From a virus, in IMG/VR virus record IMGVR_UViG_3300029931_000011: a DNA stretch of 64,000 nucleotides; one strand, written 5' to 3'. Shown one piece after another: positions 1,794 through 60,400 of the stretch. Made by a program: the position numbers and the translations under genes. The notes beneath the pieces are model-generated. The model was given only the letters and a program-made list of their open reading frames with translations. It was not told where the DNA came from and did no database searches. Each line of letters starts with the position of its first letter. Within the stretch, counting starts at the first letter, position 1.

Positions 1794-2197
1794 TTCGACC
1801 CCTCACCATCCCTGGGAGCCTCTGGAGCGAGGAGCAGGCGGAGCCTGTCAGCCCGTTCGTTGCTCTCCCACTTGTCGCGGAAGTACGGCGTGGCGTAGCC
1901 CCACCCCTCCTCCGCAAGATCGATCGCCTCCCTCAGCCACGCCTCCAGCTCCTCGAGCCTGGAGAGCAGGGCGTCGGCCGAGTTGCGCAGGGCGACGATG
2001 CCGGCGGCGTCGGGGTCGCCAGTCGTGGGGCCATTCTCGACGGTGCCCATCGTGGCGATGTGCGGCTCCCAGTCGTCACCCTCGTCGTCGGTGGACTGGT
2101 AGATGCTGACGGTCGGCCACGGACCGCAAACCTTCCATGGCCCCGGGCTCATCTTCGCCAGCACCTCGCGCAGTCCCTTCAGGTCTAGGTCACCCAT
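1790..2197 (-). CDS. hypothetical protein
   Basis: Full ORF of 135 aa (MGDLDLKGLREVLAKMSPGPWKV...), coupled to neighbours by short overlaps. Confidence 0.75.
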   Translation of the reverse strand: MGDLDLKGLREVLAKMSPGPWKVCGPWPTVSIYQSTDDEGDDWEPHIATMGTVENGPTTGDPDAAGIVALRNSADALLSRLEELEAWLREAIDLAEEGWGYATPYFRDKWESNERADRLRLLLAPEAPRDGEGSK

Positions 2198-2924
2198 TGC
2201 TCTCCTCCTTGGCCTTGAGTGCGGCGATGCCCGCCATCACCAGGGCAATGCCCAGGTCGATGGCAGCCGCGGGGTCATCTGGCGCTGTCACCCCTTTCCA
2301 GTTGCGACCAGAGATGGCGGCCTCAAGCGTCTGAAGGGGGACACCGAGAACTCGGGCGAGGTAGCTCGTGGATGCGCCGTGTGACTTCATCAAGAGCGCG
2401 TCGCTGACGATCTTCTCGGTGAGCGTGTTGCGTCTCGTGTTTCGGCTTTGCTCGTCGCGCGTCGCCCACCGGCAGTTTCCCGGCTCGTAACCCTTGTCGT
2501 TGTCGATGCGGTCAAGGGAGTGCACCGGGGAGGGCTTCGGCCCCATGTCCGCCAGAAACGACTCAAAGGAACCGGACCACCGGTCACAGACCGCAATTCC
2601 GCGTCCCACATAGTTGTGCGCGCCCCTCCTCGTCGACCGTCCGCATCGATCCTTCATGTTCATCCACGCCTGGTACTCGCTCTTGTGCATGGACCGGAGA
2701 ACGCTCGCTTCCTTGCGAGCGCATCCGCAACTCGGGGCCCCGCCACCGCGCGCGACCTGACGTGGACTGGCATCGTCGCGCTCGACGGCCCTTCCGCAAT
2801 CGCACTGGAACATCCAGAACCACGAGTGGCCGACCTTGCGTGTCCGCTCCCTCGCCACTAGTCGCCCGTATCTCGTACCCGGAGACGTGGGCGCCAGCAC
2901 CGGCTCGTCGCTACGCCGCGTCAT
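2190..2924 (-). CDS. HNH-like (His-Me finger-like) protein with C-terminal HTH, paralog 1 of 4
   Basis: ORF trimmed to ATG 2924, preceded by GGAGG. Motifs: CDCG...CGC zinc ribbon, YVGRGIAVCDRW, HSLDRIDNDKGYEPGNCRWAT, and HTH-like SYLARVLGVPLQTLEAAISG. Paralogs are at 13956, 26239 and 59604. Confidence 0.85.
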   Translation of the reverse strand: MTRRSDEPVLAPTSPGTRYGRLVARERTRKVGHSWFWMFQCDCGRAVERDDASPRQVARGGGAPSCGCARKEASVLRSMHKSEYQAWMNMKDRCGRSTRRGAHNYVGRGIAVCDRWSGSFESFLADMGPKPSPVHSLDRIDNDKGYEPGNCRWATRDEQSRNTRRNTLTEKIVSDALLMKSHGASTSYLARVLGVPLQTLEAAISGRNWKGVTAPDDPAAAIDLGIALVMAGIAALKAKEESNG

Positions 2925-3146
2925 CGCTTGCCTCCATCTCGGGTCTCGGTCTGCATCGCGTCTCCCTCGGTTGCTCTCGTGGTGAGCCGACGACGTGTCA
3001 CCGTCGCCGGCCCGGGCCGCCACGCTCGACATGGGCGGCCTTGTCGCCGTGCCTACGTTGAGGCGCGCGCACCGCGCTGCGGTACTGACGAGTCGGGACC
3101 GAGCCCGACCTCCTCGATTTGGTTCGAGTCGTCCATGGTGGTCACC

Positions 3147-6837: not shown

Positions 6838-7692
6838 TCAGGCCCCCTCCGTCGAAGCCGTCTGCTCGGCCGCGCACCTCTCGATGTCCTCCATCGCGCG
6901 CTCGTCGGTGGCGAAGAAGTGCGGCACGCGACCGGTGCTCGCGCGGTAGATCATCGCGCCCGCTTGCTGCGATCCGCACTCGCGCTCCAGCGCGGCGCCG
7001 GCCGGGCCGGCGAAGTGGATCGCCCAGCCAGCGCGGCAGTGCGTCGTACCGCACACGCCGCCCGAACCGTGCCACTGCGACATGTCGAGCACGCCGCCCT
7101 TGACGGTGACGGCGTCGAGGATACGAGCGTCGAGATTCTCGACGACGGGAACGTTCGGGTGGCGCTCACGGTACCGCCGCGCACGCTCGGCGAGCACTTC
7201 GCGCGTCGGCTCCTGGCGCACGTACGGCTCGGGCGGATCCGTCTTGTCGACGCCGCCTGGCAAGTTGATCGCGTCCGCGAGGTTGGCGTCCGCGAGGTTG
7301 GCGCCCGCGAGGTTGGCGCCCGCGAGGTCGGCGCGCGCGAGGTTGGCGTCCGCGAGGTCGGCGCCCGCGAGGTTGGCGCGCGCGAGGTTGGCGCCCGCGA
7401 GGTCGGCGCGCGCGAGGTTGGCGTCCGCGAGGTCGGCGCCCGCGAGGTTGGCGCCCGCGAGGTCGGCGCGCGCGAGGTTGGCGCCCGCGAGGTCGGCGCC
7501 CGCGAGGTTGGCGCCCGCGAGGTCGGCGCCCGCGAGGTCGGCGCCCGCGAGGTTGGCGCGCGATCCATCACCCTCGCCGTAGCGCCACGCTCGGTGCCTG
7601 GCTAGCACCTCGCTCAGCGCCTCGGCGAGTGAGGTGGCCGTATCGCTAGTGTAGAGCGCGACGTTCGTGAATCGGTTGCGGATGACGTACAT
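6838..7692 (-). CDS. pentapeptide-repeat protein with C-terminal Cys-containing domain
   Basis: Trimmed to ATG 7692 (MYVIRNRF). About 20 tandem A(D/N)LxG/A pentapeptides (ANLAGADLAGADLAGANLAGADL...). C-terminal domain contains CGTTHCRAGWAIHF. Confidence 0.9.
   Translation of the reverse strand: MYVIRNRFTNVALYTSDTATSLAEALSEVLARHRAWRYGEGDGSRANLAGADLAGADLAGANLAGADLAGANLARADLAGANLAGADLADANLARADLAGANLARANLAGADLADANLARADLAGANLAGANLADANLADAINLPGGVDKTDPPEPYVRQEPTREVLAERARRYRERHPNVPVVENLDARILDAVTVKGGVLDMSQWHGSGGVCGTTHCRAGWAIHFAGPAGAALERECGSQQAGAMIYRASTGRVPHFFATDERAMEDIERCAAEQTASTEGA
7271..7560. repeat. 15-bp tandem DNA repeat (cgcgaggtYggcgYc) encoding the pentapeptide repeats
   Basis: About 19 near-identical 15-bp units are visible directly in lines 7261-7560. 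They lie entirely inside CDS 6838..7692. Confidence 0.9.
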
Positions 7693-13355: not shown

Positions 13356-13963
13356 CCCGCCCCATCGTCCTCCTCGATGTCGACGGCCCGCTCGCGCTGT
13401 TCGTCGAGGCGTGCCAGGCCGAGCTCGCCGGCCACGGCGTCTACCGCGAGGCTGCCGCCGTCAAAACGTTCCGTCTCGAGGAGGCGTGGAGCCTGTCGCC
13501 CGACCAGAAGCAGATCCTCGCGCGCGCCTACAAGCGTCCAGGGTTCTGCGCTGGCATCGCGCCGCGCGAGAAAGCGCGAGAAGCCGTCGAGCGCCTGCGC
13601 GGCATCGCCGACGTCTACGCGGTCACCGCGCCGATGTGGAGCGGGCCGACGTGGCAGCACGAGCGCACCGAGTGGCTCGTCGATCACTTCGGGTTCCAGC
13701 GCGACCACGTCGTTTCGACGTCGGCAAAGTACCTCGTCGGCGGCGACGTGCTCGTCGACGATCGCGCCGAGACGCTGGTGATGTGGGAGCGACACGGGCG
13801 GGCGTCTGGTGTCGGCGTGCTGTGGGCGATGCCGCACAACTTCAACGCGTGGGCCAACGGCGAGTGGGACGGCGACCGGACTAGCGACTGGCAGGTCGTG
13901 ATCAACCTGGCCGAGCGACTGGCAGGCGCGCGCGATCCGCAGGAGGCGACGCGTCGTGCGTGA
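13352..13963 (+). CDS. HAD-family 5'(3')-deoxyribonucleotidase-like (NT5C-type)
   Basis: GTG start in a GTGA overlap. HAD motif I is LLDVDGPLA. Overall resemblance to the NT5C family is from memory. Confidence 0.8.
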   Translation: MTRPIVLLDVDGPLALFVEACQAELAGHGVYREAAAVKTFRLEEAWSLSPDQKQILARAYKRPGFCAGIAPREKAREAVERLRGIADVYAVTAPMWSGPTWQHERTEWLVDHFGFQRDHVVSTSAKYLVGGDVLVDDRAETLVMWERHGRASGVGVLWAMPHNFNAWANGEWDGDRTSDWQVVINLAERLAGARDPQEATRRA

Positions 13964-14468
13964 TCGCCCCGGCGTCATGGTGGTCAACGTCGCCACCGGC
14001 GAGACCCGTCCGCGCGCGCGGAAGGGTCCGCTCAAGCACGGTCTCTCGCGGACGCCCGAGTACCGCGCGTGGCAGACGATGCGGCACCGGTGCACCCGGC
14101 CGACAAGCCCAAGCTGGCCCGACTACGGCGGACGCGGCATCACCGTCGCCGCCGAGTGGCTCAATGACCCACGAGCCTTCATCGCCCACATCGGGCCGCG
14201 CCCATCTCCGAAGCATGAGGTCGACCGCATCGACAACGAGCGGGGCTACGAACCAGGCAATGTTCGATGGGTCACGCGCCCGGTCAACGACCGCAACCGA
14301 CGGAGCAACAACCTCCAGACGTTCAACGGCGAGACCCTGACGATCGCCGAGTGGGCGGAACGCACCGGCATCAGCGCCGACACGCTCTACGACCGCATCA
14401 CCCGGCGAGGTTGGTCAATCGAGAGGGCACTGACGACTCCGGTGCGCGCAAAGGCGAGGGCGGCGTAG
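13956..14468 (+). CDS. HNH-like protein with C-terminal HTH, paralog 2 of 4 (lacks N-terminal zinc ribbon)
   Basis: Full ORF. Motifs PEYRAWQTMRHRC, YGGRGITVAAEW, HEVDRIDNERGYEPGNVRWVT and HTH-like LTIAEWAERTGISADTLYDRITRRGW. Confidence 0.85.
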   Translation: MRDRPGVMVVNVATGETRPRARKGPLKHGLSRTPEYRAWQTMRHRCTRPTSPSWPDYGGRGITVAAEWLNDPRAFIAHIGPRPSPKHEVDRIDNERGYEPGNVRWVTRPVNDRNRRSNNLQTFNGETLTIAEWAERTGISADTLYDRITRRGWSIERALTTPVRAKARAA

Positions 14469-19036: not shown

Positions 19037-19710
19037 GCGCCGAGCATTGCACCCGATGCCGCGGCGCGATGCTGCCAGAGTGGGGCGGGTATCGCTGGTG
19101 CCCGACGTGCCGCGAGGAGGGAGCGAAGCGCCAGCGCGCCCGCACCAAGACGGCGAAGGGGCGCGCGCTCCACGCGAAGCACTGCGCGACGTGGAGGGGC
19201 AAGAACCGCGAGGACTACAACGCCGGCCGGATGGACGACTACTACGCGCGCCGCGAGCGGAAGCAGTGCATTGCCTGCAGCGAGCCGGCGCTGCCAACGG
19301 GGCCGCGGTGTCAGAAGCATCGCGACGCGCACGTGCAAGCGCAGCGCGAGTATCGCGCTCGGCGCGCCGGGGGCCAGCAGCGGCTGATCAAGCCGCTGAT
19401 CAAGCCGCTGCCACGAAAGCGGCCAGCGAAGATGCCCGCACCGGTTCGGCGCGCGGCCGCGACCGAGCCCGCCCCGCACGAGCAGCTCGAGCTTCCGCTC
19501 CGCGTCCGCATCCTGCGCGTCGTCCGCTTCTATGACGCCGCCACCGGCGAGGACATCCGCGAGCACCTCGGGCTCGGCGATGACGCGCGCGACGCCGTGT
19601 CGGCGCACCTCTCGCGCCTGACGAAGCGCGGGCTCCTCGCCCGCCTCCCCGACCGCAGCCGCGCCGAGGCCGCGTACCGCCTCACCGACGAAGGAAGGAG
19701 GGCCGCCTGA
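19033..19710 (+). CDS. zinc-ribbon + winged-helix-like DNA-binding protein
   Basis: Full ORF of 225 aa. Motifs CTRCRG...CPTC and CIAC...CQKH. C-terminal EDIREHLGLGDDARDAVSAHLSRLTKRGLLARL. Confidence 0.75.
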   Translation: MSAEHCTRCRGAMLPEWGGYRWCPTCREEGAKRQRARTKTAKGRALHAKHCATWRGKNREDYNAGRMDDYYARRERKQCIACSEPALPTGPRCQKHRDAHVQAQREYRARRAGGQQRLIKPLIKPLPRKRPAKMPAPVRRAAATEPAPHEQLELPLRVRILRVVRFYDAATGEDIREHLGLGDDARDAVSAHLSRLTKRGLLARLPDRSRAEAAYRLTDEGRRAA

Positions 19711-20012
19711 TGCGCACGTACAAGCCGACGGGTCGACCGGTGGGACGACCGAAGGCCCCGCGGAGCTCGACGACGACACCGATCGCCGACTGGCGCCTGG
19801 GTGAGCTTTCGCTCCGCGAGGCCGCCGTGCGCTTCGTCGAGCTGTGCAACGGCGTCGACGCGGCGACCGTCTGCGAGGAGTTCGGCGCCGACACAAGGGA
19901 AGGCCAGACGATCCGCGCCGCCCTAAATGGGGCTGCGAAGAGCGGAGAGCGCATCGTCAAGCACGATGGCGCGTTCTACCCGGCGCGCCGCGCTTCCCGG
20001 AGAGCCGCATGA
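19710..20012 (+). CDS. hypothetical protein
   Basis: Full ORF of 100 aa with a TGATG junction. Confidence 0.7.
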   Translation: MRTYKPTGRPVGRPKAPRSSTTTPIADWRLGELSLREAAVRFVELCNGVDAATVCEEFGADTREGQTIRAALNGAAKSGERIVKHDGAFYPARRASRRAA

Positions 20013-20215
20013 CGCGAACGCTGTCGATCAACGGCTCGGTGCACATCGAGACCGATGCCGGCCACACCCTGCAGCACGCGGGGAAGGGGAAGCCGCGGCA
20101 GCTCATCTGCCATCGCTGCGACGAGCGGCTCTTCATCGAGGGCGAGACGTTCGACGATCGAGTCGAGCACCTCAGGCAGATCATCGCGGAGCACGGAGGT
20201 GCGTCGTGCCCGTGA
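20009..20215 (+). CDS. hypothetical small protein
   Basis: ORF 19844..20215 trimmed to ATG 20009 (ATGA overlap). Translation starts MTRTLSINGSVHIETDAGHTLQHAGKGKPRQLICHRCDERLF... Confidence 0.65.
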   Translation: MTRTLSINGSVHIETDAGHTLQHAGKGKPRQLICHRCDERLFIEGETFDDRVEHLRQIIAEHGGASCP

Positions 20216-20520
20216 GGCGAGCTGCGCGACGAGATGCGAACGAGGACGAGATCGTCCGCGCACTGCGCGCCGCCGGCGCGTCGGTGTGTCTCCTCAGCAT
20301 GAAGGACGTGCCCGATCTTCTCGTCGGGTTCCGTGGCGCGAACTTTCTGCTCGAGGTGAAGCAGGAAGGGCGCCGCGGGGCATCCATCAAGAGCATCCAC
20401 GCCGAGCTCAGTGACGACCAGGCGGCGTGGCACGAGACCTGGCGCGGTCTCACGCCGGTCGTTGTTCGTAACACAGCCGAGGCGCTCGCCGCCATCGGCG
20501 CGACCACAGGAGCACCGTGA
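20206..20520 (+). CDS. VRR-NUC-type PD-(D/E)xK nuclease
   Basis: Motif IVRALRAAGASVCLLSMKDVPDLLVGFRGANFLLEVKQE...LSDDQAAWHETWRG. GTG 20206 was chosen because GGAGG lies 6 nt upstream. GTG 20212 (GTGA overlap) is equally possible. Confidence 0.8.
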   Translation: MPVRRAARRDANEDEIVRALRAAGASVCLLSMKDVPDLLVGFRGANFLLEVKQEGRRGASIKSIHAELSDDQAAWHETWRGLTPVVVRNTAEALAAIGATTGAP

Positions 20521-20813
20521 GCACCGAAGACCGCGACGTGTACCCCGCCGTCGTCCTCAACCCCGAGGCGATCGGCGAACCCAACCAGACGCCGGAGGTG
20601 CAACTCTCGCCGGCGCTGGTCGCCCTCGCGCGGGGCGAGTCCGCGGAGTCGGGCCCGTGCCGGAAGTGCAAGCGCGACGCACCGCCGAGCGCCGACGCCC
20701 TGGCCGCCAAGCTCGCGCGCGAGGACACGGGCGGCCCGATCGAATGGCTGTCGTACGAGGAGCAGGAGCGGTGGCGCCGGATCGCGCGGCACGCGCTCGA
20801 GGTGATCGGGTGA
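20517..20813 (+). CDS. hypothetical protein
   Basis: Full ORF of 98 aa with a GTGA overlap. Confidence 0.7.
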   Translation: MSTEDRDVYPAVVLNPEAIGEPNQTPEVQLSPALVALARGESAESGPCRKCKRDAPPSADALAAKLAREDTGGPIEWLSYEEQERWRRIARHALEVIG

Positions 20814-21364
20814 GCGCCTCCGACGACACCACGCCGACCGTTGAGGTCGTCGACTACTCCGACCTGCGGCCCTGCCCGCCGCTCCCCGGGCCGTTGTACG
20901 TCGACGACGAGCGCCTACCGCCGAACTTCTGGTCCAAGGTGACGCCCGAGCCGAATACTGGCTGCTGGCTGTGGTTTGCCTGTGGTTCTGCTGATGGGTA
21001 CGGGCAGTCGTTCGTGACGGGGAGGCAAGTGTACGCGCACAGGCTGGCGTACATCGTTCTTACCGGTCACGACCCGGGCGCGCTCCAGTTGGACCACCTG
21101 TGCCGCACGCGCTGCTGCGTAAACCCGGCACACCTCGAGCCGGTGACGAACGCCGAAAACTCGCGCCGGGGGCGCATTCGCCAGGTCACGAAGGAACGAC
21201 ACGCGGCCAAGACGCATTGCGTGAACGGGCACCCGTTCACCGACGAGAACACCCTCGTCCGCACAGAGCAGGGGCGCTCTGGCGTCTACGGCATCCGACG
21301 TTGCCGAGCGTGCAACCGGGAACGGATGCGGAAGCTTCGTAAGCTACGAAGGGAGTCGGCATGA
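20810..21364 (+). CDS. HNH endonuclease (HNH_3-type) with a 30-aa N-terminal extension
   Basis: ORF 20411..21364 trimmed to GTG 20810 (GTGA overlap). Motif CWLWFACGSADGYGQ...AHRLAYIV...LDHLCRTRCCVNPAHLEPVTNAENS. The N-terminal VVDYSDLRPCPPLPGP repeats the start of the next gene. Confidence 0.9.
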   Translation: MSASDDTTPTVEVVDYSDLRPCPPLPGPLYVDDERLPPNFWSKVTPEPNTGCWLWFACGSADGYGQSFVTGRQVYAHRLAYIVLTGHDPGALQLDHLCRTRCCVNPAHLEPVTNAENSRRGRIRQVTKERHAAKTHCVNGHPFTDENTLVRTEQGRSGVYGIRRCRACNRERMRKLRKLRRESA

Positions 21365-21810
21365 GGGACGAATTTCAAGACGAGGGGCTCGTTGTCGACA
21401 TTTCCGATCTTCGACCATGCCCATTCCTGCCTGGACCCTTCCCGGAACGCTGCACCGCTCGCTGCGTGTGCTGTGACGACCGCATGGAGGTGTTCATCGA
21501 CCAGCGTGTGAGCCTGGATGCCGACAGCACCGGCGACACCGCCCGGCTCGTGCCCGCGATCCCCGTCGACCAGCACGCTCGGTTGCTCGCGATGTCGGCG
21601 AGCGCGGTGGGCCGCGATGGCGTCGGCGGGTGGCTGCTCATCCCGGATCCGAAGCGGGGCATCGAATGGGTGTGCCGCGAGTGCGCGAAGGTGGCGATCG
21701 ACTTCACTGCCGACGAGGTGCAGAAGGCCGTCGCGATGTGGCTGCGGTGGTCGCGGATCGAGGTGGAGGACAGGACGGCGGGCGCGCCGAGGCGTTGGGG
21801 GCGGCGATGA
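21361..21810 (+). CDS. hypothetical Cys-containing protein
   Basis: Full ORF of 149 aa. The first ~30 codons are A/T3-rich and encode VVDISDLRPCPFLPGP. Confidence 0.7.
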   Translation: MRDEFQDEGLVVDISDLRPCPFLPGPFPERCTARCVCCDDRMEVFIDQRVSLDADSTGDTARLVPAIPVDQHARLLAMSASAVGRDGVGGWLLIPDPKRGIEWVCRECAKVAIDFTADEVQKAVAMWLRWSRIEVEDRTAGAPRRWGRR

Positions 21811-22061
21811 AGTACAGCGAGCGCGACCGCGACCTCGCAGCGAAGGTGTGCTCGATCGCGGCCTGCGGCGAGGCCGGTGGCGAGCACCAGTGCTACCAGT
21901 TCATCGCCGAGGAGATCTGCGACACAGCCCGCCACTCGAAGCGCGTGGCGACCTTGGCGCTCAAAGCATGGGCCGAGGTCCCGGACAACGTCGTCGAGTT
22001 GAACATGGCCGAACACGACGCGTGGGCTGAGGCGATGCTGCGAACGGGATGGGAGCCATGA
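21807..22061 (+). CDS. hypothetical protein
   Basis: ORF 21630..22061 trimmed to ATG 21807 (ATGA overlap). Translation starts MKYSERDRDLAAKVCSIAACGEAGGEHQCYQF... Confidence 0.65.
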   Translation: MKYSERDRDLAAKVCSIAACGEAGGEHQCYQFIAEEICDTARHSKRVATLALKAWAEVPDNVVELNMAEHDAWAEAMLRTGWEP

Positions 22062-22459
22062 ACCCGATCCCTCTCACCGGTCCCGACGGCACGGTCTACT
22101 GCTTCGCCTGCTCGACGTGCGGCAAGCCGTGGTCGTCCATCGATCTGGTCTACGTGCCGTCGCCGGTCGAGCGCGCGGAGCACATCGCCCGCTATCGCGA
22201 CGAATCGCGCTGGCGCGCCGAGAGGTGCTGCCACTGCATGGACTGCGGCGACCCGCTCGTTCCGACGGAGGCGGATGCCGACGGGATGGTCTCGCTCTGG
22301 TCGAAGTCGATGTGCAGGCGCTGCATCGCGAAGGCCGAGGAGAAGCGTCGCTGGAATCGGTTCGGGTGGGCATGGGGTCAGATCGCCGACGCCATCGCGC
22401 GCGGCATCACGACGGAAGCCGAGTGGAATGCTCAGTTCCCAGAGGAGGAGGACGAATGA
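22058..22459 (+). CDS. hypothetical zinc-ribbon protein
   Basis: ORF 22049..22459 with ATG 22058 in an ATGA overlap. Motifs CFACSTCG...CCHCMDCG...CRRC. Confidence 0.7.
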   Translation: MNPIPLTGPDGTVYCFACSTCGKPWSSIDLVYVPSPVERAEHIARYRDESRWRAERCCHCMDCGDPLVPTEADADGMVSLWSKSMCRRCIAKAEEKRRWNRFGWAWGQIADAIARGITTEAEWNAQFPEEEDE

Positions 22460-22605
22460 CCGCCAACGACGTCGCCGCCCTCGCTGTCGCGGTCGCGCTC
22501 ATCCTCATCGGCCCACGCCTCGATCCCGGCCGACGCGGCAACGTGCAGCTCGTCGTCTGGCTCGCCTGCATCGCGGCCCTGTTCATCGATTGGAACCGCC
22601 TATGA
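22456..22605 (+). CDS. small membrane protein
   Basis: ATG 22456 in an ATGA overlap. Translation: MTANDVAALAVAVALILIGPRLDPGRRGNVQLVVWLACIAALFIDWNRL. Confidence 0.5.
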   Translation: MTANDVAALAVAVALILIGPRLDPGRRGNVQLVVWLACIAALFIDWNRL

Positions 22606-26113: not shown

Positions 26114-26239
26114 ATGACCCCGATCCGCGCCCTCGCCGCCATCCTGACCGCCATGCTCGTCCTGGGGGCGTGCGGGGACTCAGGCCCCGGGGAGGACGGC
26201 GAGCTGCCGGCGGCGTTCACCGTGATGGAGGTACACTGA
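26114..26239 (+). pseudogene. orphan 5' stub of a lipoprotein gene (41 codons)
   Basis: MTPIRALAAILTAMLVLGACGDSGPGEDGELPAAFTVMEVH*. G/C3-rich. Shares the lipobox and the GEDGELPA.F.V block with the lipoprotein at 26883. Its TGA overlaps the ATG of the HNH-like gene. Confidence 0.55.
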
Positions 26240-26883
26240 TGCCCCCGTTCGTCGACTACACCGGGAAGCGATTCGGAGCCCTGGTCGTTGAAGGGAAGGC
26301 GGCGCAGACTGCCCACGGCAAGTTCCGCTGGTCGTGCCTGTGCGACTGCGGCGCCCGGACCATCGTGGAGGGGCGGTGCCTGAAGAGCGGCGGCGTGAGC
26401 TCCTGTGGATGCCAGCGGCGTGCGCGAATCAGCGCGAAGGCACGGGCGCGCTGGGGTGACCCGCTTGCGCTCAAGGAGAACAACCCGGTCGAATACAATG
26501 CGTGGGCGAACATGATCAATCGCTGCGAGAACCCACGTAACAAGTTCTTCTCGAACTACGGCGGTCGAGGCATCAAGGTCTGCGCCGAGTGGCGTGAGAG
26601 CTTCGCGCGCTTTCTTTCCGACATGGGCAAGCGCCCATCGCCGGGGCACTCCCTCGATCGCATCAAGGGCGACGGGAACTACACGCCGCTCAACTGCCGA
26701 TGGGCGACCCGAGTTGAGCAGAACCGAAACCGACGCAACTGCCTCGAGCCCCACGAGCCTGACCAGATCCGGTGGCTTCGCGCCAGTGGGTACACGAATC
26801 GTGAGATCGCCTGCTTCTTCGATGTGCACTATTCCTCGGTCGCCCGCATTGCCCAGGGGCGTACATGGACGGAGGCTGCGTGA
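26239..26883 (+). CDS. HNH-like protein with zinc ribbon and C-terminal HTH, paralog 3 of 4
   Basis: ORF 25909..26883 trimmed to ATG 26239. Motifs CLCDCG...CGC, YGGRGIKVCAEW, HSLDRIKGDGNYTPLNCRWAT and HTH-like YTNREIACFFDVHYSSVARIAQGRTW. Confidence 0.85.
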   Translation: MPPFVDYTGKRFGALVVEGKAAQTAHGKFRWSCLCDCGARTIVEGRCLKSGGVSSCGCQRRARISAKARARWGDPLALKENNPVEYNAWANMINRCENPRNKFFSNYGGRGIKVCAEWRESFARFLSDMGKRPSPGHSLDRIKGDGNYTPLNCRWATRVEQNRNRRNCLEPHEPDQIRWLRASGYTNREIACFFDVHYSSVARIAQGRTWTEAA

Positions 26884-27326
26884 TGCGTACATGGTTGGCT
26901 GCGGTCGCGGTCGCGGTGATCGCCGCGTGTGGTGGTGGCGGCGGGGGCGAGGATGGGGAGCTGCCGGCGGGCTTTGAGGTCAACGCGACACGAACGGATG
27001 GCGGTGGACCCGTCGTGAGCTGTCCGTCCACGCCGTCTTGGCGTGCGTGGTTCGAGGATGTGTCCTCCACCGGCGCGACCCTCACGCCGAATGGCGCCAG
27101 TGGGCCTGGGGCATGGGTGTGCGGGGCGCCGATGCGCGTCGACGGCGCGTGGGTCGTAGGCTGCGAGGCGAATACCGGAAGCGTCACGGTTTCGTCGGTG
27201 TTCACCTTCGCCGACGCTGGCGGAGGAGTGATCGATCACGTCGGAACCTTCAACGCTGACGGGAGCGCCGCCTGCGCCTCGTCGTACCGCATCGACTCCA
27301 TCGTCGAGGACCTCGACGGCCCGTGA
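26883..27326 (+). CDS. lipoprotein
   Basis: ORF 26865..27326 trimmed to ATG 26883 (TGATG junction). N-terminus MRTWLAAVAVAVIAACGGGGGGEDGELPAGFEV. Many A/T-ending codons. Confidence 0.75.
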   Translation: MRTWLAAVAVAVIAACGGGGGGEDGELPAGFEVNATRTDGGGPVVSCPSTPSWRAWFEDVSSTGATLTPNGASGPGAWVCGAPMRVDGAWVVGCEANTGSVTVSSVFTFADAGGGVIDHVGTFNADGSAACASSYRIDSIVEDLDGP

Positions 27327-41292: not shown

Positions 41293-41336
41293 CGTCGAGC
41301 ACCGTGCGCCCGCGTCCGTCGAGGATCCACATTCGG

Positions 41337-41408
41337 TAGCAGGGGCGAGAATCGAACTCGCTTCTGCTCGGGTATGAGCCGAGCGCGCAGCCGGAGCGCC
41401 TCCCTGCA
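41337..41408 (-). tRNA. tRNA with CAU anticodon (Met, or Ile2 if lysidine-modified), 72 nt
   Basis: Hand-folded cloverleaf: TGCAGGG AG GCGC TCCGGCT GCGC G CTCGG CTCATAC CCGAG CAGAA GCGAG TTCGATT CTCGC CCCTGCT A. All stems are Watson-Crick except position 1-72 (T-T). U33, A37 and G53-C61 are present. Position 8 is A, not U. Confidence 0.75.
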
Positions 41409-51521: not shown

Positions 51522-53120
51522 TTACTCCTCCTCCTCGGGGTCGTCGTCCTCGTCAGGATCTTCCTTGCCGAGCTTGGCCATCTCGGCCGCGACTGCGCGC
51601 TCCTCCTCACGCCGCAGCACGAGGTCTGCGTCGTCGTGGGCCCTCATCGGCGGCGCGCCGAGGTGCTCGAGGAAGAAGTTGACGATCTCCTCGACGCGGT
51701 CGGGCGAGGCGCCGGCCTTCTGGAGGAAGTCGCCGACGGCCGCCATCGCGCTCGGGATGTCCTGGAGCTCGATCGCGGCCCACGTGAGCGTCGGCGCCGT
51801 CTCCGGGTCCCAGCCGTTCCACGCCCAGAGGGGCATGACGAGGTCGCGGCGGAAGGTCTCCGCGATGCGGTTGAGCACCGACGTCACCGTGCGAATCGCC
51901 GCCGCCATCTTGCTCGCGTGCATCGCGTCGGAGCCGCGACCCTCCTGGCCGAGGAGCAGGTACTCGAAGCCGAGCAGCGCGAGCAGCTGCCACGTGAGCC
52001 GATCGATCCGCCGCTCGAGCGCGTCGAAGCTCGAGGCCTGCGAGGCGAGCACCTCGGCGTGCCACCGCCGCACCGGCGACGGGCTCTGATCGGTCGACGG
52101 GTAGGTGCTCGAGTCGAGGATGAGCCCGCCACCCTTGCGCACCTTGGCGTCGACGAAGTTCTTGACCGGCTGGAACTCGGCGTCGAAGTCGGTCGCCGTG
52201 TAGCCGCTGTCCTTCTGCGCGACCTTCCCCTTCCGCTCCATCACCGGCCCGTACACGATCGGGACGCCGTTCACGTCCTTCTCGAAGGCGCGGTTCTGGT
52301 AGCGGACGAGCTCCTGCATCTGCCGCACCGCCTCGGCGAGCTGGCGCATGACGCCGCAACCCTCCGGGTGGTCCGTGATCGGGATGTCCTTCGTCCACAC
52401 CAGGCGGCCGCGCTCGATCGGGTGCTCGGTGCCGTCGTTCGGATCGCGCTGCACGATCCCGACGACCTGGCCGCGCTCGTGCTCCCACCGCTCGACGGTG
52501 TGCGGCGACAGCTTCATCAAGTCGAGCAGACCAAAGCGGCCGTCGGCGAGCCGCTTGAACGTCCACGCCTGCAGCGCGTAGCCGTCGAGCGTGGACATCG
52601 CCGCCGACATCACGGCGTCGGCCCACTGCGTGTCCATGGAGCCGATCTGCTTCTGCAGCCAGGCCGCGCGCTCCTGATCCTCGGGCGTCGCCTCCTCGGC
52701 GGCGTCGGCCTTGTACGGCTCGACGGTCCACGTCGGCGAGCCCGCGAGCGTCAGGTACGCGCGCACGCCGAGCCCGACCGGGATGACGTTGCGCTTCCAC
52801 TCGTCGAAGTTCCTCCACCTCGACGCGCCCACCATCTCGCCGTTCTTCTCGTTCGACTGCGGATAGCCGCCGTACCACGAGTAGCCCGGCACGCCCGCGC
52901 GCTCGGTCGGGCCGGCCGCCTTCTCGACCGCCGCCGCCTCGGTCGCCGACGAGGCCCGCTGCCCATGCAACGGCTCCTCCGACACGGGGTGGTAGTCGTC
53001 GAGCGCGTTACGCACAGGTTCCGGCGGCGGCATCGACGCGACGCCGAGCCAGGACGTGAAGCGAGAGAGCGCACGCATGGTCGGGGCCATGCTGCGGCCG
53101 CGATGGCGCGCGCCCCACAT
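51522..53120 (-). CDS. portal protein
   Basis: ORF of 532 aa directly downstream of terL, with an acidic C-terminus (EDPDEDDDPEEEE). Assigned by size and position. An alternative start is ATG 53090. Confidence 0.8.
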   Translation of the reverse strand: MWGARHRGRSMAPTMRALSRFTSWLGVASMPPPEPVRNALDDYHPVSEEPLHGQRASSATEAAAVEKAAGPTERAGVPGYSWYGGYPQSNEKNGEMVGASRWRNFDEWKRNVIPVGLGVRAYLTLAGSPTWTVEPYKADAAEEATPEDQERAAWLQKQIGSMDTQWADAVMSAAMSTLDGYALQAWTFKRLADGRFGLLDLMKLSPHTVERWEHERGQVVGIVQRDPNDGTEHPIERGRLVWTKDIPITDHPEGCGVMRQLAEAVRQMQELVRYQNRAFEKDVNGVPIVYGPVMERKGKVAQKDSGYTATDFDAEFQPVKNFVDAKVRKGGGLILDSSTYPSTDQSPSPVRRWHAEVLASQASSFDALERRIDRLTWQLLALLGFEYLLLGQEGRGSDAMHASKMAAAIRTVTSVLNRIAETFRRDLVMPLWAWNGWDPETAPTLTWAAIELQDIPSAMAAVGDFLQKAGASPDRVEEIVNFFLEHLGAPPMRAHDDADLVLRREEERAVAAEMAKLGKEDPDEDDDPEEEE

Positions 53121-54680
53121 TCACTCGTCGTACGTGCCGGCATCCGACGGCGCCCAGGTTCCGACCTGGTTCGTGTCGATCCCGCCGCCGCCGCGGTGGA
53201 GCAGGTTGAAGGCGTGCCGCGCCCAATCGACCTGATCGTCGTGCGGGTCATCGAGGCCGGTGAACTCGCGGTGCTCCTCGATGAAGTCGTGCCAGTCGTC
53301 GAGCGGGTCGTCCGGGTCGGAGAGCGGCACCTCGACGCGCGCCTGGTTCCATGCGTCGGCGTAGGGCGTCGCGCCCTCCATCTTGCCGCCCTTCGTGAAC
53401 GCCGCCGGCAGCGGGAAGACCTGCACCTCGCCATCGAGCGCGCGGATCACGTCGGGCATCGCCGAGAAGCCGCCCACCGCTTCGACGTAGATCGGTAGCC
53501 CGTACTCCTTGGCCATCGGCTTCACGTGCTCGCGAAGGAACGCTGGCACCGAGGCCTGCGCGCGCTTGTTGCGGAGGATGCGCGCGCGCTCGTTCTCGCC
53601 GATGCCGATCATTCCCATGACGCCGGCGGCCTGGTAGTCGCTCGAGGTCTTCTTCGTGCCCGCCGGATCCCACACGAGCGCGAGGCGCCACGCCTGCCCG
53701 TCGAGGCCAAGCCCCTCGAGCTTGTAGCGTTGCGGCTCGTCCTGGAAGAGCTTCGAGTCGCGCGGCCGCGGCTCCTGCTGGTAGAGCGACCACCAGCGAT
53801 AGGCGCCCTTCGCGCGCTGCTTCCGCGCCCACTCGATGTCGTAGCCCGCCTCGGGCCAGAGCGCGATGTGGATGTCGGGGTCGAAGTCCTGCCCCCGCGC
53901 ACCACCGTCGACGGGTTCGCCGGTGCGCGCGTCGACGACCGCGGCGAGCTTGATGTGCTCCCACGTCTCGCCGAGCCCGTCGCGCATGATACGGCCGAGC
54001 GGGTCGTCGAGGTGCCATCGTGTGCCGACGAGGAAGTTGCTCGCGCCGCGCTCCATGCGCGTCATGACGTCGTCGAGCAGGTACTCGAAGGTCTTGTCGC
54101 GGATGAGGCGCGACTCGGCCGCGATGCGGCCCTTGAGCATGTCGTCGTTCACGATCGCGCCGCTGTTGCAGCCGCGCCCGGTGATGTCGCCGCCGACGCT
54201 CGTGGACTTGAGCCCGCCGTCGAAGGTCGTTGCCCAATCGTGCACGTTGGCGCGGTCGTCGGCGATCGGGACGCCGGCCTTGCGCGCGAGCTTGCGCGTC
54301 TTGTACGAGAAGTCGGTCGCGAGCGAGTCGCCGAAGGTGACGTAGAAGTTGAGGCACGCCGGATCGCGAAGAAGTCGCCACGCGAGGTACTGGCGCAGCG
54401 ACGTCGACTTCCCGAAGCGCGGCGGCATCGAGCAAGTGACGTGCACCGGCCGAATGCGGCTCTCCTGGAACAGCGCGTAGAGCCGACGCAGGTGCCGCGG
54501 CACGACGCGTCCGAGCTCGGGCGAGTGCTGGTGCACGAAGTCGACGAAGGACAGCCCGCCGTGCTGCGCTTCGTACAGCGTCCGGTACCGCTCCTGGTCG
54601 GCGGGCGACAGCCGCGCCAGCTCAGCCGGCGTCAGCGCCACCAGTCGGCTCGCTCGGTGCGGACGCCGCCTCGCGCGCAC
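53121..54680 (-). CDS. terL: terminase large subunit
   Basis: ORF of 519 aa. Walker A-like MPPRFGKST, Walker B-like GAIVNDDM and TRWHLDDP. The start is uncertain (GTG 54641 is possible). Overlaps the terS end. Confidence 0.9.
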   Translation of the reverse strand: MRARRRPHRASRLVALTPAELARLSPADQERYRTLYEAQHGGLSFVDFVHQHSPELGRVVPRHLRRLYALFQESRIRPVHVTCSMPPRFGKSTSLRQYLAWRLLRDPACLNFYVTFGDSLATDFSYKTRKLARKAGVPIADDRANVHDWATTFDGGLKSTSVGGDITGRGCNSGAIVNDDMLKGRIAAESRLIRDKTFEYLLDDVMTRMERGASNFLVGTRWHLDDPLGRIMRDGLGETWEHIKLAAVVDARTGEPVDGGARGQDFDPDIHIALWPEAGYDIEWARKQRAKGAYRWWSLYQQEPRPRDSKLFQDEPQRYKLEGLGLDGQAWRLALVWDPAGTKKTSSDYQAAGVMGMIGIGENERARILRNKRAQASVPAFLREHVKPMAKEYGLPIYVEAVGGFSAMPDVIRALDGEVQVFPLPAAFTKGGKMEGATPYADAWNQARVEVPLSDPDDPLDDWHDFIEEHREFTGLDDPHDDQVDWARHAFNLLHRGGGGIDTNQVGTWAPSDAGTYDE

Positions 54681-58843: not shown

Positions 58844-59638
58844 ATGCCCTCGTTCCTCTCCCGCCTTCTCGCGCCCTTCCTCGCGACGTGGCGCCAGCTC
58901 CTCACGCCGCCCGCCATCCCGTCCACCGACGTGCTGATGAGCGAGACGGAGTCCGAGATCGATGCCGACGTGATCGAGGCATGCGGCAAGCTGGCGATGG
59001 CACGCCTGACCGAACTGTGGCGGCAGGATATCTACGACCCTCGCCACACCGAGACGAGCGAGAACGCCGAGCGGTGCCGCGCTGCGATCCTCGACATCAT
59101 CCACAACGGCGGCGGGTGGCGGTGGATCAAGCGATACGGCGGCGACGGCGCACCCGCGGCAGAGCACGCCGAGTGGTGCGGCTTCACGCAGGCGTGGGCG
59201 TGGGCGCCGTGGATCCCCGAGGAGACGCGGAAGACGTGGTGGGCGTCGACGTACCGGCTCGATGCGTGGGCGCGCTATGCGGCGCTCGACATGAGCGGGA
59301 AGACCACGCCGAACCCGAAGCCGGCGCGCGGGCCCTTCCGCCTCTACGTCAAGCTCGACGAGCACTCGACGAAGCTTCCATTCCAGCCGCAGGCCGGTGA
59401 CATCCTGCTCGTGGGCGACGGGAAGCCTGACTACGGCGACCACGTCTGCGGCGTGCTCGGGTACGACGAGAAGCGGCGGATGTTTTCTACGTTAGAAGGA
59501 AACGGCGGCGGCCTAGGGCCAGATGGAAAGAAGCAGCACGGTCTAGTGAAGGCCGAACGCCCCCTTGGGGCGACGTCCGGTCACTCGTACCACGCGCGGC
59601 GCCTCATCCGGCTTTCGCCGTCGGACCTGATTCCGTAG
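58844..59638 (+). CDS. endolysin, CHAP/NlpC-P60-like cysteine peptidase/amidase
   Basis: Full ORF of 264 aa. Candidate catalytic residues are Cys (EHAEWCGFTQAW) and His (GDHVCGVLGY), then STLEGNGGG. The last ~50 codons are A/T3-rich. Confidence 0.75.
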   Translation: MPSFLSRLLAPFLATWRQLLTPPAIPSTDVLMSETESEIDADVIEACGKLAMARLTELWRQDIYDPRHTETSENAERCRAAILDIIHNGGGWRWIKRYGGDGAPAAEHAEWCGFTQAWAWAPWIPEETRKTWWASTYRLDAWARYAALDMSGKTTPNPKPARGPFRLYVKLDEHSTKLPFQPQAGDILLVGDGKPDYGDHVCGVLGYDEKRRMFSTLEGNGGGLGPDGKKQHGLVKAERPLGATSGHSYHARRLIRLSPSDLIP

Positions 59639-60310
59639 CCCACGCGCCGTCGTTGAGTACGTGGCTGACGGCTGACTCCGAGCAGCCGACCGCGTCGGAG
59701 ATGGCCTTGTAGCTGTTGCCTTCTGACCGCAGCGCGCGAATGCGTTCCGCCTTCTCCGGGGTGAGAACGACACCGCGACGATTCCTCGCCTGTGTCGTCG
59801 GCAGCGCCCACCGGCAGTTGCCCGGCTCGTAACCCTTGGTGCCGTCGACGCGATCGATGGAGTGACGCTTCGACGGGCGCGGGCCCATGTCGGCGAGGAA
59901 CGCCGCGAAGCTCTCGCGCCAGCGGTCGCACACGGTGATTCCGCGGCCGCCATAGTCCGCGTAGTCGCCGCAGTTCGTGTCGGCGCACCGCTGGCGCATC
60001 CGCTTCCACAGGCCGAAGTCCGGGTGGCGTCGCTCGTCAGCGCGAGCGAGCCCATGCCTGAACTTGACCCTCGAGATACGCTCAGCCGCGCCCTCGCGCT
60101 GAAAGCATCCGCACGAGCGGGTCTTGCCGTTGCGAAGGGTTCCTGCGCGGACCACTAGTTCGCCGCCGCAGTCGCAGCGGCAGTGCCATGCAGCGTCTTT
60201 CCACTCGGGCTTGGCGACGCGCTCGATGACGAGAAGCCGCCCGAACCGCTGACCGCGCAAGTCAATGAATGCCGGCATGTGACATCGATAGTCACGAATA
60301 CCGGCGGCGC
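59480..60310. mobile_element. putative homing cassette: recoded endolysin 3' end plus HNH-like gene
   Basis: Compositionally atypical (A/T-ending codons). Bounded on the right by the orphan native endolysin tail at 60311-60400. Boundaries are approximate. Confidence 0.5.
59604..60278 (-). CDS. HNH-like protein with zinc ribbon and C-terminal HTH, paralog 4 of 4
   Basis: Full ORF of 224 aa. Motifs CRCDCG...CGC, YGGRGITVCDRW, HSIDRVDGTKGYEPGNCRWAL and HTH-like SYKAISDAVGCSESAVSHVLNDGAW. Confidence 0.85.
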   Translation of the reverse strand: MPAFIDLRGQRFGRLLVIERVAKPEWKDAAWHCRCDCGGELVVRAGTLRNGKTRSCGCFQREGAAERISRVKFRHGLARADERRHPDFGLWKRMRQRCADTNCGDYADYGGRGITVCDRWRESFAAFLADMGPRPSKRHSIDRVDGTKGYEPGNCRWALPTTQARNRRGVVLTPEKAERIRALRSEGNSYKAISDAVGCSESAVSHVLNDGAWATESGPTAKAG

Positions 60311-60400
60311 AAGGCCGAGCGACCGCTGGGCGCGCGCTCGGGCCACGGCTACCACGCGCGACGGCTGATCCGCGTGGCCCCGCACGACCTTATCGGGTAG
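60311..60400 (+). pseudogene. orphan 3' end of the endolysin gene (29 codons + TAG)
   Basis: Translates KAERPLGARSGHGYHARRLIRVAPHDLIG*, against the endolysin C-terminus KAERPLGATSGHSYHARRLIRLSPSDLIP*. No start codon or upstream coding context. Confidence 0.7.

Follow-up and report, generated by a model that had tools for sequence, protein, structure and literature searches.

We examined a stretch of 64,000 nucleotides of viral DNA, IMG/VR record IMGVR_UViG_3300029931_000011 (the whole stretch is called the window below), in which an HNH endonuclease gene, probably part of a homing element, sits inside the coding sequence of another gene and carries a substitute for the gene start that it displaced. 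The window has a G+C content of approximately 70% and the gene content of a tailed phage. Three genes on the plus strand make up the locus. A 98-codon gene (20517-20813) overlaps the start of the HNH gene (20810-21364, start codon GTG at 20810) by GTGA, and the HNH gene in turn shares an ATGA junction at its stop with a 149-codon gene (21361-21810, start codon ATG at 21361), referred to here as the target gene; beyond 21810 follow more small, overlapping genes on the plus strand. The initial annotation of this DNA, made from the sequence alone, had given the coordinates of the HNH and target genes, their ATGA junction and the positions of two similar motifs, all of which were reproduced as stated. 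The product of the target gene is a Cys-rich protein of 149 amino acids with no match in Pfam or PHROG and no protein match among isolated phages. Isolated phages likewise gave no near match to the window and no near-identical DNA for positions 19700-22500.

The HNH open reading frame (ORF) encodes VVDYSDLRPCPPLPGP at 20846-20893, and the target gene encodes VVDISDLRPCPFLPGP at 21391-21438. The two segments share 32 of 48 nucleotides and 14 of 16 amino acids, so that the strong partial identity reported initially was correct and only its hand count, 31 of 48, was not. Ten of the 14 conserved codons differ between the copies, in all ten cases at the third base only, as had been claimed; the further description of the downstream copy as the A/T-ending one holds for eight of these ten. 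If alternative synonymous codons were drawn at random, approximately 7 of 10 would be expected to end in A or T (hand estimate from the codon table). The G+C content at third codon positions (GC3) was 0.96 (27/28) in the first 28 codons of the HNH ORF, 0.81 (125/155) in the HNH body, 0.56 (15/27) in the first 27 codons of the target gene and 0.90 (110/122) in the remainder of that gene. The value at the start of the target gene is lower than that of the upstream fragment (p = 0.0004) and than that of the HNH body (p = 0.011), and low GC3 is restricted to this 5' end, as the initial annotation had noted.

Duplications were searched for with an identity-window scan and a short N-terminal screen; an all-against-all BLASTP of six-frame ORFs and a first Smith-Waterman screen were dropped, both being swamped by low-complexity matches in high-GC non-coding frames. 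When the entire window was scanned on both strands for peptides no more than 4 kb apart that agree at 11 or more of 14 residues, the pair studied here, two other pairs flanking nuclease genes and one tandem repeat were returned, and nothing else. The Smith-Waterman score of the pair was 75. In a null distribution obtained from 67 HNH loci, by pairing the region upstream of the nuclease at one locus with the downstream gene start of another, the 99.9th percentile was 52 and the maximum 55. Chance, which had already been argued against, is excluded as the source of the repeated peptide.

Which of the two copies is native was revealed by alleles of the target gene that have no nuclease in front of them. 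A search with the target protein returned four homologs (P0001 to P0004). P0001 is 99% identical and shares the N-terminus of the window's protein, and its gene follows this HNH gene in the arrangement seen in the window. The contigs encoding the other three (up to 35.9 kb) carry no nuclease ahead of the target gene, and the proteins begin with MSASDDTASTVEVVDCSDLRPCPPLPGPW (P0002), with MAREIHDDGPTVEVVDYSDLRPCPPLPGPW (P0003) and with a close variant of the latter (P0004). The N-terminal extension of the HNH protein, VSASDDTTPTVEVVDYSDLRPCPPLPGP followed by LYVDDE, matches the N-termini of all three. Nuclease-free alleles number five (P0002 at locus L007, P0003 at L001 to L006, P0004 at L009, and L082), the fifth stemming from a scan of JGI metagenomes that gave only this one more; IMG/VR held no relatives of the target gene and GTDB genomes none, and hence no clue to a prophage or a host. 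At the nucleotide level, window positions 20810-20894 are 94% identical to the first 85 nucleotides of the gene at L007 (544-628), and positions 20834-20894 are 96.7% identical to L001 5844-5904. The present start of the target gene matches L007 at only 12/24, 15/24 and 19/30 nucleotides in successive blocks, that is 46/78 (59%) over the first 28 aligned codons. From position 21442 onwards identity to L007 jumps from 19/30 to 28/30, 28/30 and then approximately 95%, with later blocks ranging from 26/30 to 30/30 and the 3' end matching at 18/21 and 14/15, one variable stretch excepted. Because the two copies differ so widely in identity to the empty-site alleles (59% versus 94-97%), the downstream copy is the foreign one and the upstream copy is native. 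The proposal that the native 5' end of the target gene is now fused in frame to the nuclease was thereby borne out: the 5' ends of all five alleles lacking the HNH insertion match the HNH extension, and not the present start of the target gene.

The upstream fragment and the sequence from 21391 onwards map to the same part of the empty-site gene. In an alignment of the two junctions with L007 and L001 as empty sites, the left break falls after 20894, between GGGCCGT and TGTACG. Because the native fragment and the foreign stretch end at the same codon (TGG/TTC, codon 29), the difference can be described as one discrete insertion of approximately 547 bp on the plus strand (20895..21441), a cassette made up of the HNH ORF and a surrogate 5' end. 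Its edges are ambiguous by 1-3 nucleotides; the native codon 29 (TGG) is replaced, and the cassette is absent from the nuclease-free alleles, in which the target gene has 145-150 codons. The insertion point lies within one of the most conserved stretches of the gene, where 20-22 of 30 positions are invariant among four nuclease-free alleles. Presence and absence thus alternate at one precise site, with five empty alleles against one occupied genotype.

From left to right on the plus strand, the occupied allele consists of the native ribosome-binding site of the target gene, read from the sequence as GAGGTGA (20799..20805, its GAGG core 7 nucleotides before the GTG at 20810); the displaced native 5' end, recognised by its identity to L007 and L001 and comprising the start codon, codons 2-28 and one further nucleotide in frame with the nuclease (20810..20894); the HNH_3 body (20894..21364), which begins at TTG 20894 (LYVDDERLPPNFWSKV) and ends with the stop codon TGA at 21362-21364; a new Shine-Dalgarno sequence for the restored target gene, AGGGAG (21350..21355), lying within the 3' coding end of the nuclease 5 nucleotides before the ATG at 21361; the surrogate 5' end, a new ATG and 26 codons re-encoding the displaced peptide (21361..21441); and the native remainder of the target gene, from codon 30 to the stop (21442..21810), with its high GC3 and its identity to L007. 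We are nearly certain of this anatomy, that is of an insertion, a native fragment and an imported surrogate. A chimeric metagenome assembly that joined two alleles of one gene could in principle produce the same picture, and the window is of the metagenomic type with no near match among isolated phages. Contigs of up to 65-67 kb, at least 24 in number and obtained from different samples with different assemblers, nevertheless show the identical arrangement and encode an identical fusion protein, and a cultured phage with a complete genome (Malisha, below) has this design as well, so that an assembly artefact deserves practically no credence.

Within the target gene, a short hypervariable stretch was noticed at 21511-21560, which reads VSLDADSTGDTARLVP in the window and GWRDDAGVEH or GLDLAEPSAF in other alleles; alleles differ in length by 6 codons here, while both flanks are well conserved.

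The nuclease itself looks intact, as judged from its sequence and a structural model. It matches the Pfam family PF13392 (HNH_3) with 36.7 bits against a cut-off of 24.8 over residues 74-119, and phrog_826 ('HNH endonuclease') with 1e-46 over residues 34-182. In an alignment of 79 sequences, D95, H96, C98, C103, N105, H108, N117, C137, H141, C165 and C168 are invariant, the catalytic D-H...N...H/N motif and the zinc-binding cysteines thus being intact. An AlphaFold model based on these 79 sequences gave predicted local distance difference test (pLDDT) scores of at least 90 in nearly every 10-residue block of the core (block means 86-98), and the best fold matches of the core model were the His-Me finger enzymes I-PpoI and I-HmuI, both weak (E approximately 0.06); a sequence search of the PDB returned no match. 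Residues 1-30 were modelled with pLDDT 65-76 and without secondary structure. Free-standing relatives of the enzyme start 6-12 residues before a conserved RLPxRFWxKV, which corresponds to the left edge of the cassette at TTG 20894, and because they begin there, this edge is, on the evidence of those starts, the ancestral start of the nuclease itself.

Extra DNA-binding modules are common on homing nucleases, and some HNH_3 homologs have 200-290 residues, so that the extension might be thought a genuine module of the nuclease family, or a motif that the enzyme shares with the neighbouring gene by paralogy. Had that been so, the same extension should occur on HNH homologs in other contexts, as the initial annotation had pointed out. 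Of 2361 HNH homologs, none apart from P0005, an identical protein, aligns over residues 1-30; identity does not exceed 59% in the other homologs listed, whose alignments are confined to the core and cover 57-88% of the query. Given moreover that the nucleotide match to nuclease-free target alleles runs from the start codon itself, and that the segment is predicted to be unstructured, the extension does not belong to the nuclease family.

Eight HNH_3 homologs (P0006, P0010, P0012, P0013, P0034, P0044, P0061 and P0066) have 240-290 residues in place of the usual 141-165; the extra length could represent further captured gene starts or added DNA-binding modules.

The insertion has redistributed the translation signals of the target gene. 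Its original Shine-Dalgarno sequence (GAGGTGA) and GTG now head the nuclease ORF, and in L007 the corresponding position ahead of the GTG start reads GGAGGTG. Because the native Shine-Dalgarno sequence and GTG are read in frame into the nuclease, ribosomes loading at the native site of the target gene are predicted to translate the nuclease, to which translation of the target gene is in turn coupled as far as these signals tell. No promoter- or terminator-like site was found within the cassette. No Rfam family reached its gathering score anywhere in the window, hence no intron family, and no intein domain was found among the Pfam matches. Nuclease and target are separate ORFs joined by an ATGA overlap, an arrangement that is neither intron- nor intein-borne.

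The locus is not the only one of its kind in the window, which holds five HNH-type nuclease genes in 64 kb; the other four belong to a second type (phrog_374), and two of these four display the same geometry. The first of the two junctions (26114-26981, plus strand) consists of a 41-codon ORF ending in MTPIRALAAILTAMLVLGACGDSGPGEDGELPAAFTVMEVH and a stop codon, with GC3 of 0.97, followed across a TGATG by the phrog_374 nuclease (26239-26883) and across another TGATG by a lipoprotein gene with a diverged start, MRTWLAAVAVAVIAACGGGGGGEDGELPAGF, with GC3 of 0.76. The other (59483-60400) is of a 3'-end type. Here the phrog_374 nuclease (59604-60278) lies on the opposite strand to a lysin-like gene (58844-59638, plus strand), whose last approximately 50 codons have a low GC3 (0.69), and positions 60308-60400 hold a remnant of the lysin-like gene's 3' end with high GC3, stop codon included (KAERPLGARSGHGYHARRLIRVAPHDLIG and stop). 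Native and surrogate ends were assigned by GC3 alone at these two junctions, the 41-codon ORF being taken on this basis as the native signal-peptide end of the lipoprotein gene. No close homolog of the lipoprotein gene was found, so that there is no empty site for comparison, and homologs of the lysin-like gene were at most 74% identical and provided none for the third junction. At all three junctions in the window the native remnant lies upstream and the surrogate downstream relative to the direction of the nuclease. The three junctions of the same polarity described initially thus exist; an in-frame fusion is not general among them, since the native fragment ahead of the nuclease at 26239 is a short ORF with overlapping stop and start codons. 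The remaining phrog_374 genes, 2190-3032 (minus strand) and 13956-14468 (plus strand), showed no flanking peptide duplication at the thresholds used.

Beyond the window, we inspected 70 IMG/VR loci with HNH_3 relatives and found four independent cases in which 7-31 codons from the start of the next gene are duplicated at the beginning of the HNH_3 gene or ahead of it. At L048 (2557-3234) the next gene encodes a methyltransferase; 30 codons are duplicated with 57/90 nucleotides and 23/30 amino acids shared, 18 of the 23 codons for identical amino acids differ, and GC3 is 0.97 in the native copy and 0.52 in the surrogate, the latter also being below the 0.74 of the nuclease (p = 0.017). At L025 (3938-4528) the beginning of an SSB, MAGDTVINVIGNLTADPELR, is fused to RFWVKV of the nuclease. 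The remaining two cases concern a gene of unknown product with 7 duplicated codons (L046, 3974-4410) and a DNA methylase gene (L042, 3974-4656). Apparent duplications at L020, L022 and L109 were rejected as coiled-coil similarity or tandem paralogs (genes at 2226-3983 in L022, nucleases at 2501-3500 in L109).

Fourteen cultured actinobacteriophages with related HNH genes were examined as well, and one of them, Gordonia phage Malisha (OP434458.1; L094, 919-2201), contains the full design, with the HNH gene gp29 inside the lysin B gene gp30. The first 27 codons of gp29 are identical at 81 of 81 nucleotides to the lysin B gene of phage Spooky (MK937597.1; L097, 920-1543). The start of gp30 itself matches Spooky at only 49/78 nucleotides (63%), against 86/96 (90%) in the next 32 codons; its surrogate keeps 19 of 26 residues, and 13 of these 19 codons differ. 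The two genes share an ATGA overlap, and a Shine-Dalgarno sequence, AGGAGG, lies inside the 3' end of the HNH gene. In the annotation gp29 is an 'HNH endonuclease' and gp30 a 'lysin B', and nothing more. In 38 related Gordonia phage records lysin B directly follows a membrane-protein gene, without a nuclease. The other 13 cultured phages showed no duplication. In Mycobacterium phage GageAP (L083, 1474 and 1934), HNH gp46 and DNA polymerase I gp45 have only VKQ in common, too few residues to be counted. Together, these data indicate, at the level of sequence, that the design has arisen repeatedly and independently, at no fewer than eight junctions with different targets and two nuclease families.

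The collected cases also bear on how the duplication came about. The first nine residues of the surrogate in the window, MRDEFQDEG, are nearer to a class of alleles beginning MAREIHDDG, with an indel, than to the native MSASDD class. Because of this resemblance, the surrogate most likely came from a different allele class and arrived as part of the cassette, rather than being recoded in place; of the short recoded replacement 5' end postulated initially, the restored target start is confirmed and the recoding in place is not. Searches of IMG/VR, GTDB and JGI metagenomes returned no donor lineage that natively carries a 5' end of the surrogate type (MRDEFQDEGLVVDISDL). The GC3 of the surrogate, which is low compared with that of the nuclease both in the window (p = 0.011) and at L048 (p = 0.017), hints at selection for nucleotide divergence from the G/C-ending native codons.

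Some HNH enzymes, such as I-HmuI, nick DNA. Widely staggered nicks that were subsequently filled in would leave two identical copies of the target site, which might later have diverged, and direct repeats do flank the insertion. Such a target-site duplication predicts copies of equal standing, whereas the upstream copies are 94-100% and the downstream copies 59-63% identical to the empty-site alleles, the rest of the gene being at approximately 90-95%. Since the first 9-10 residues of the surrogate also belong to another allele class, with indels, and the duplications range in length from 7 to 31 codons, we consider this origin very improbable.

A further alternative starts from the surroundings of the target gene. 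The genes directly upstream of it are unrelated in the window (20810), L007 (544), L001 and L004 (5817 in L001) and L082 (666), and nucleotide homology among these lineages begins exactly at the start codon of the target gene, a sharp mosaic boundary. The cassette could be the scar of a single one-sided repair event. A nuclease gene lying between genes in a donor phage, directly ahead of a diverged ortholog of the target, would, once the recipient had been cut, have recombined at its right end inside the target gene, bringing the donor's 5' end with it, and have been joined illegitimately at its left end. Fragment and respelling would then be functionless, and the in-frame fusion would have survived only as it keeps the nuclease expressed. 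The unrelated upstream neighbours, which offer no homology on the left, agree with this explanation, as do the resemblance of the surrogate to a different natural allele class, the lack of a duplication in most relatives of the nuclease, the equal GC3 of surrogate and nuclease in L025 and Malisha, and the untidy HNH acquisitions that have created new gene ends in Cluster J mycobacteriophages (PMC3706429). It accounts poorly for the recurrence of one geometry at eight or more independent junctions, where the targets differ and two nuclease families are involved, for the retention of the fragment in Malisha despite an upstream region homologous to that of its relatives, and for surrogates that are more A/T-ending than the nuclease in the window and L048 (p-values above). 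As a full account we therefore regard a repair scar as unlikely; one-sided repair may well have been the origin of such cassettes, which is compatible with their later spread by homing.

The closest parallels to the arrangement at 20810-21810 are eukaryotic. WHO elements, relatives of the HO endonuclease in Torulaspora and Lachancea yeasts, replace the 3' end of FBA1; the retained fragment has been proposed to serve as a homology arm, and cleavage as well as resistance conferred by the carried end were shown experimentally (Coughlan et al. 2020, PMC7282813). As in WHO elements, the nuclease gene adjoins a full-length host gene whose end is the element's own divergent copy, and the displaced native end is kept on the other side of the nuclease, which makes splicing unnecessary. 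In both systems identity is much lower in the carried end than in the remainder of the gene, at 85% versus 99% in FBA1 and 59% versus approximately 93% here (at least 93% against L007; 63% versus 90% in Malisha). Unoccupied alleles resemble the displaced native end more closely (94-97%, and 81/81 nucleotides in Malisha). There are also differences. WHO elements replace the 3' end of their host gene, as the third junction of the window (59483-60400) does, whereas the 5' end is replaced at the locus studied here, where a new Shine-Dalgarno sequence and start codon are required. Their enzyme is an intein-like LAGLIDADG and zinc-finger protein related to HO and VDE, in contrast to an HNH_3 enzyme that is no member of the WHO family; they act in meiosis on nuclear chromosomes, where phage co-infection would apply here; and only here is the native fragment fused or translationally coupled to the nuclease, whose translation it drives. 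In a 2026 preprint (10.64898/2026.08.13.744650), WHO elements form a category of their own beside inteins and introns, and no counterpart in phages is mentioned. Fungal mitochondrial genes provide a second parallel, the mobile ORF elements (mORFs) of Glomus atp6, atp9, cox2 and nad3 (Beaudet et al. 2013, PMC3630166) and, in so far as cited there, of Allomyces atp6 (Paquin et al. 1994). In these, insertion of an endonuclease ORF has also brought in a foreign version of the gene end that it displaced; the native duplicate is 91-98% identical to related species and the carried end 64-81%, much as at the present locus, and some of the ORFs are in phase with their host genes. Again the end concerned is the C-terminal one, with LAGLIDADG or GIY-YIG enzymes in an organelle, as opposed to an N-terminal end and an HNH enzyme in a bacteriophage.

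We consider it probable, from the comparison of alleles and from these parallels, that the locus is a homing element, active now or until recently, that replaces a gene end and uses neither an intron nor an intein; cleavage, immunity and biased inheritance are what we infer by analogy with the yeast WHO elements. During co-infection, the nuclease would cut nuclease-free alleles at or near codon 29, and repair from the nuclease-carrying genome would copy the cassette into them, the mobile unit being the nuclease plus the surrogate gene start. The gene body would provide the right homology arm and the retained native 5' fragment the left one; because the upstream genes are unrelated, this fragment of 61-85 bp is the only left-hand homology that the window shares with those relatives. 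Carriers would be immune, since the left junction splits the recognition site and the right one has it in another spelling, and an identity of approximately 60% between the copies would block deletion of the nuclease by recombination between the repeats.

Several observations weigh against this interpretation. The cassette of the window was seen in one genomic background only, which gives no sign of its spread. The design is infrequent, at approximately 5 of 68 IMG/VR HNH_3 loci and 1 of 14 cultured phages, or approximately 7% of the HNH_3 clade, and in the second nuclease family it was found only in the phage of the window itself. The junction is not always an in-frame fusion, as is evident at 26239 and at L048, where a short ORF contains the native fragment and its stop codon overlaps the start codon of the nuclease. 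In Malisha and L025 the GC3 of the surrogate is no lower than that of the nuclease, and the ordinary codon usage of a donor could explain the respelling without selection. The nuclease may be translated from the internal TTG at 20894, and that the enzyme tolerates a 28-residue appendage is putative.

Compared with the mobile nucleases known from phages, the locus combines familiar and unfamiliar properties. With free-standing homing endonucleases (T4 seg and mob; ICP1, PMC10448857; Cluster J, PMC3706429) it shares the enzyme superfamily, the presence/absence polymorphism and the location at boundaries of genetic exchange. Such nucleases have been described between genes, splitting genes into pieces and in collaborative homing, and an untidy HNH acquisition has given rise to a new lysin A end (PMC10448857, PMC3706429); the carriage of a respelled gene end and the capture of the target's start codon set the present locus apart. 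In the phage literature we found no description of a carried replacement gene end or of the capture of a target start, in a search that was not exhaustive and had subscription journals outside its reach. As with the nucleases of introns and inteins, the insertion lies in a coding gene, within what would be the recognition sequence, so that alleles with the cassette would be immune, and the host gene stays functional; the difference is that a duplicate gene start, in place of RNA or protein splicing, restores function. The engineered HomeR and cleave-and-rescue drives (PMC7968924) likewise pair a nuclease that targets a gene with a rescue copy of the targeted part, recoded so as to resist cleavage. 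Those are man-made Cas9 constructs for insects and plants, whereas the locus would be an apparent natural counterpart in a phage, with resistance that we presume. New here are accordingly the replacement of a 5' end, the capture of the target's start by the nuclease, the HNH family and the occurrence in a phage; end replacement itself is known from yeasts and fungal mitochondria and is not categorically new.

We advance a broader proposal more tentatively, as one that may well prove wrong: actinobacteriophages would harbour an unrecognised class of homing elements, HNH nucleases that carry a respelled gene end, take over the start of their target and keep its native fragment as a portable homology arm. 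The respelling would have been selected against self-cleavage and repeat loss, and the elements would act as natural 'home-and-rescue' drives and as a source of chimeric gene ends and mosaic boundaries. Phage homing nucleases are regarded as residing between genes or within introns and inteins; if the proposal were true, they would have a third, splicing-free route into coding sequences, one so far known only from yeast nuclei and fungal mitochondria. It would account for odd N-terminal extensions on 'HNH endonucleases', for short orphan ORFs upstream of them and for gene starts with odd codon usage in actinobacteriophages. For mosaicism it would offer a concrete way to chimeric gene ends and to boundaries exactly at start codons, and it would constitute a natural parallel to gene drives with a recoded rescue. 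Malisha (occupied) and Spooky and Squiddly (unoccupied, 92% identical) share a laboratory host, Gordonia terrae 3612, and form a ready experimental system.

Elsewhere in the window, the genes for the large terminase (53121-54680) and the portal protein (51522-53120) are encoded on the minus strand. A lone tRNA-Met (CAT) gene lies amid structural genes at 41335-41408 on the minus strand. At 7271-7559, the 15-nucleotide unit GCGCCCGCGAGGTTG is repeated in tandem in 19 copies with 90% matches, and its minus-strand reading gives PTSRA repeats.

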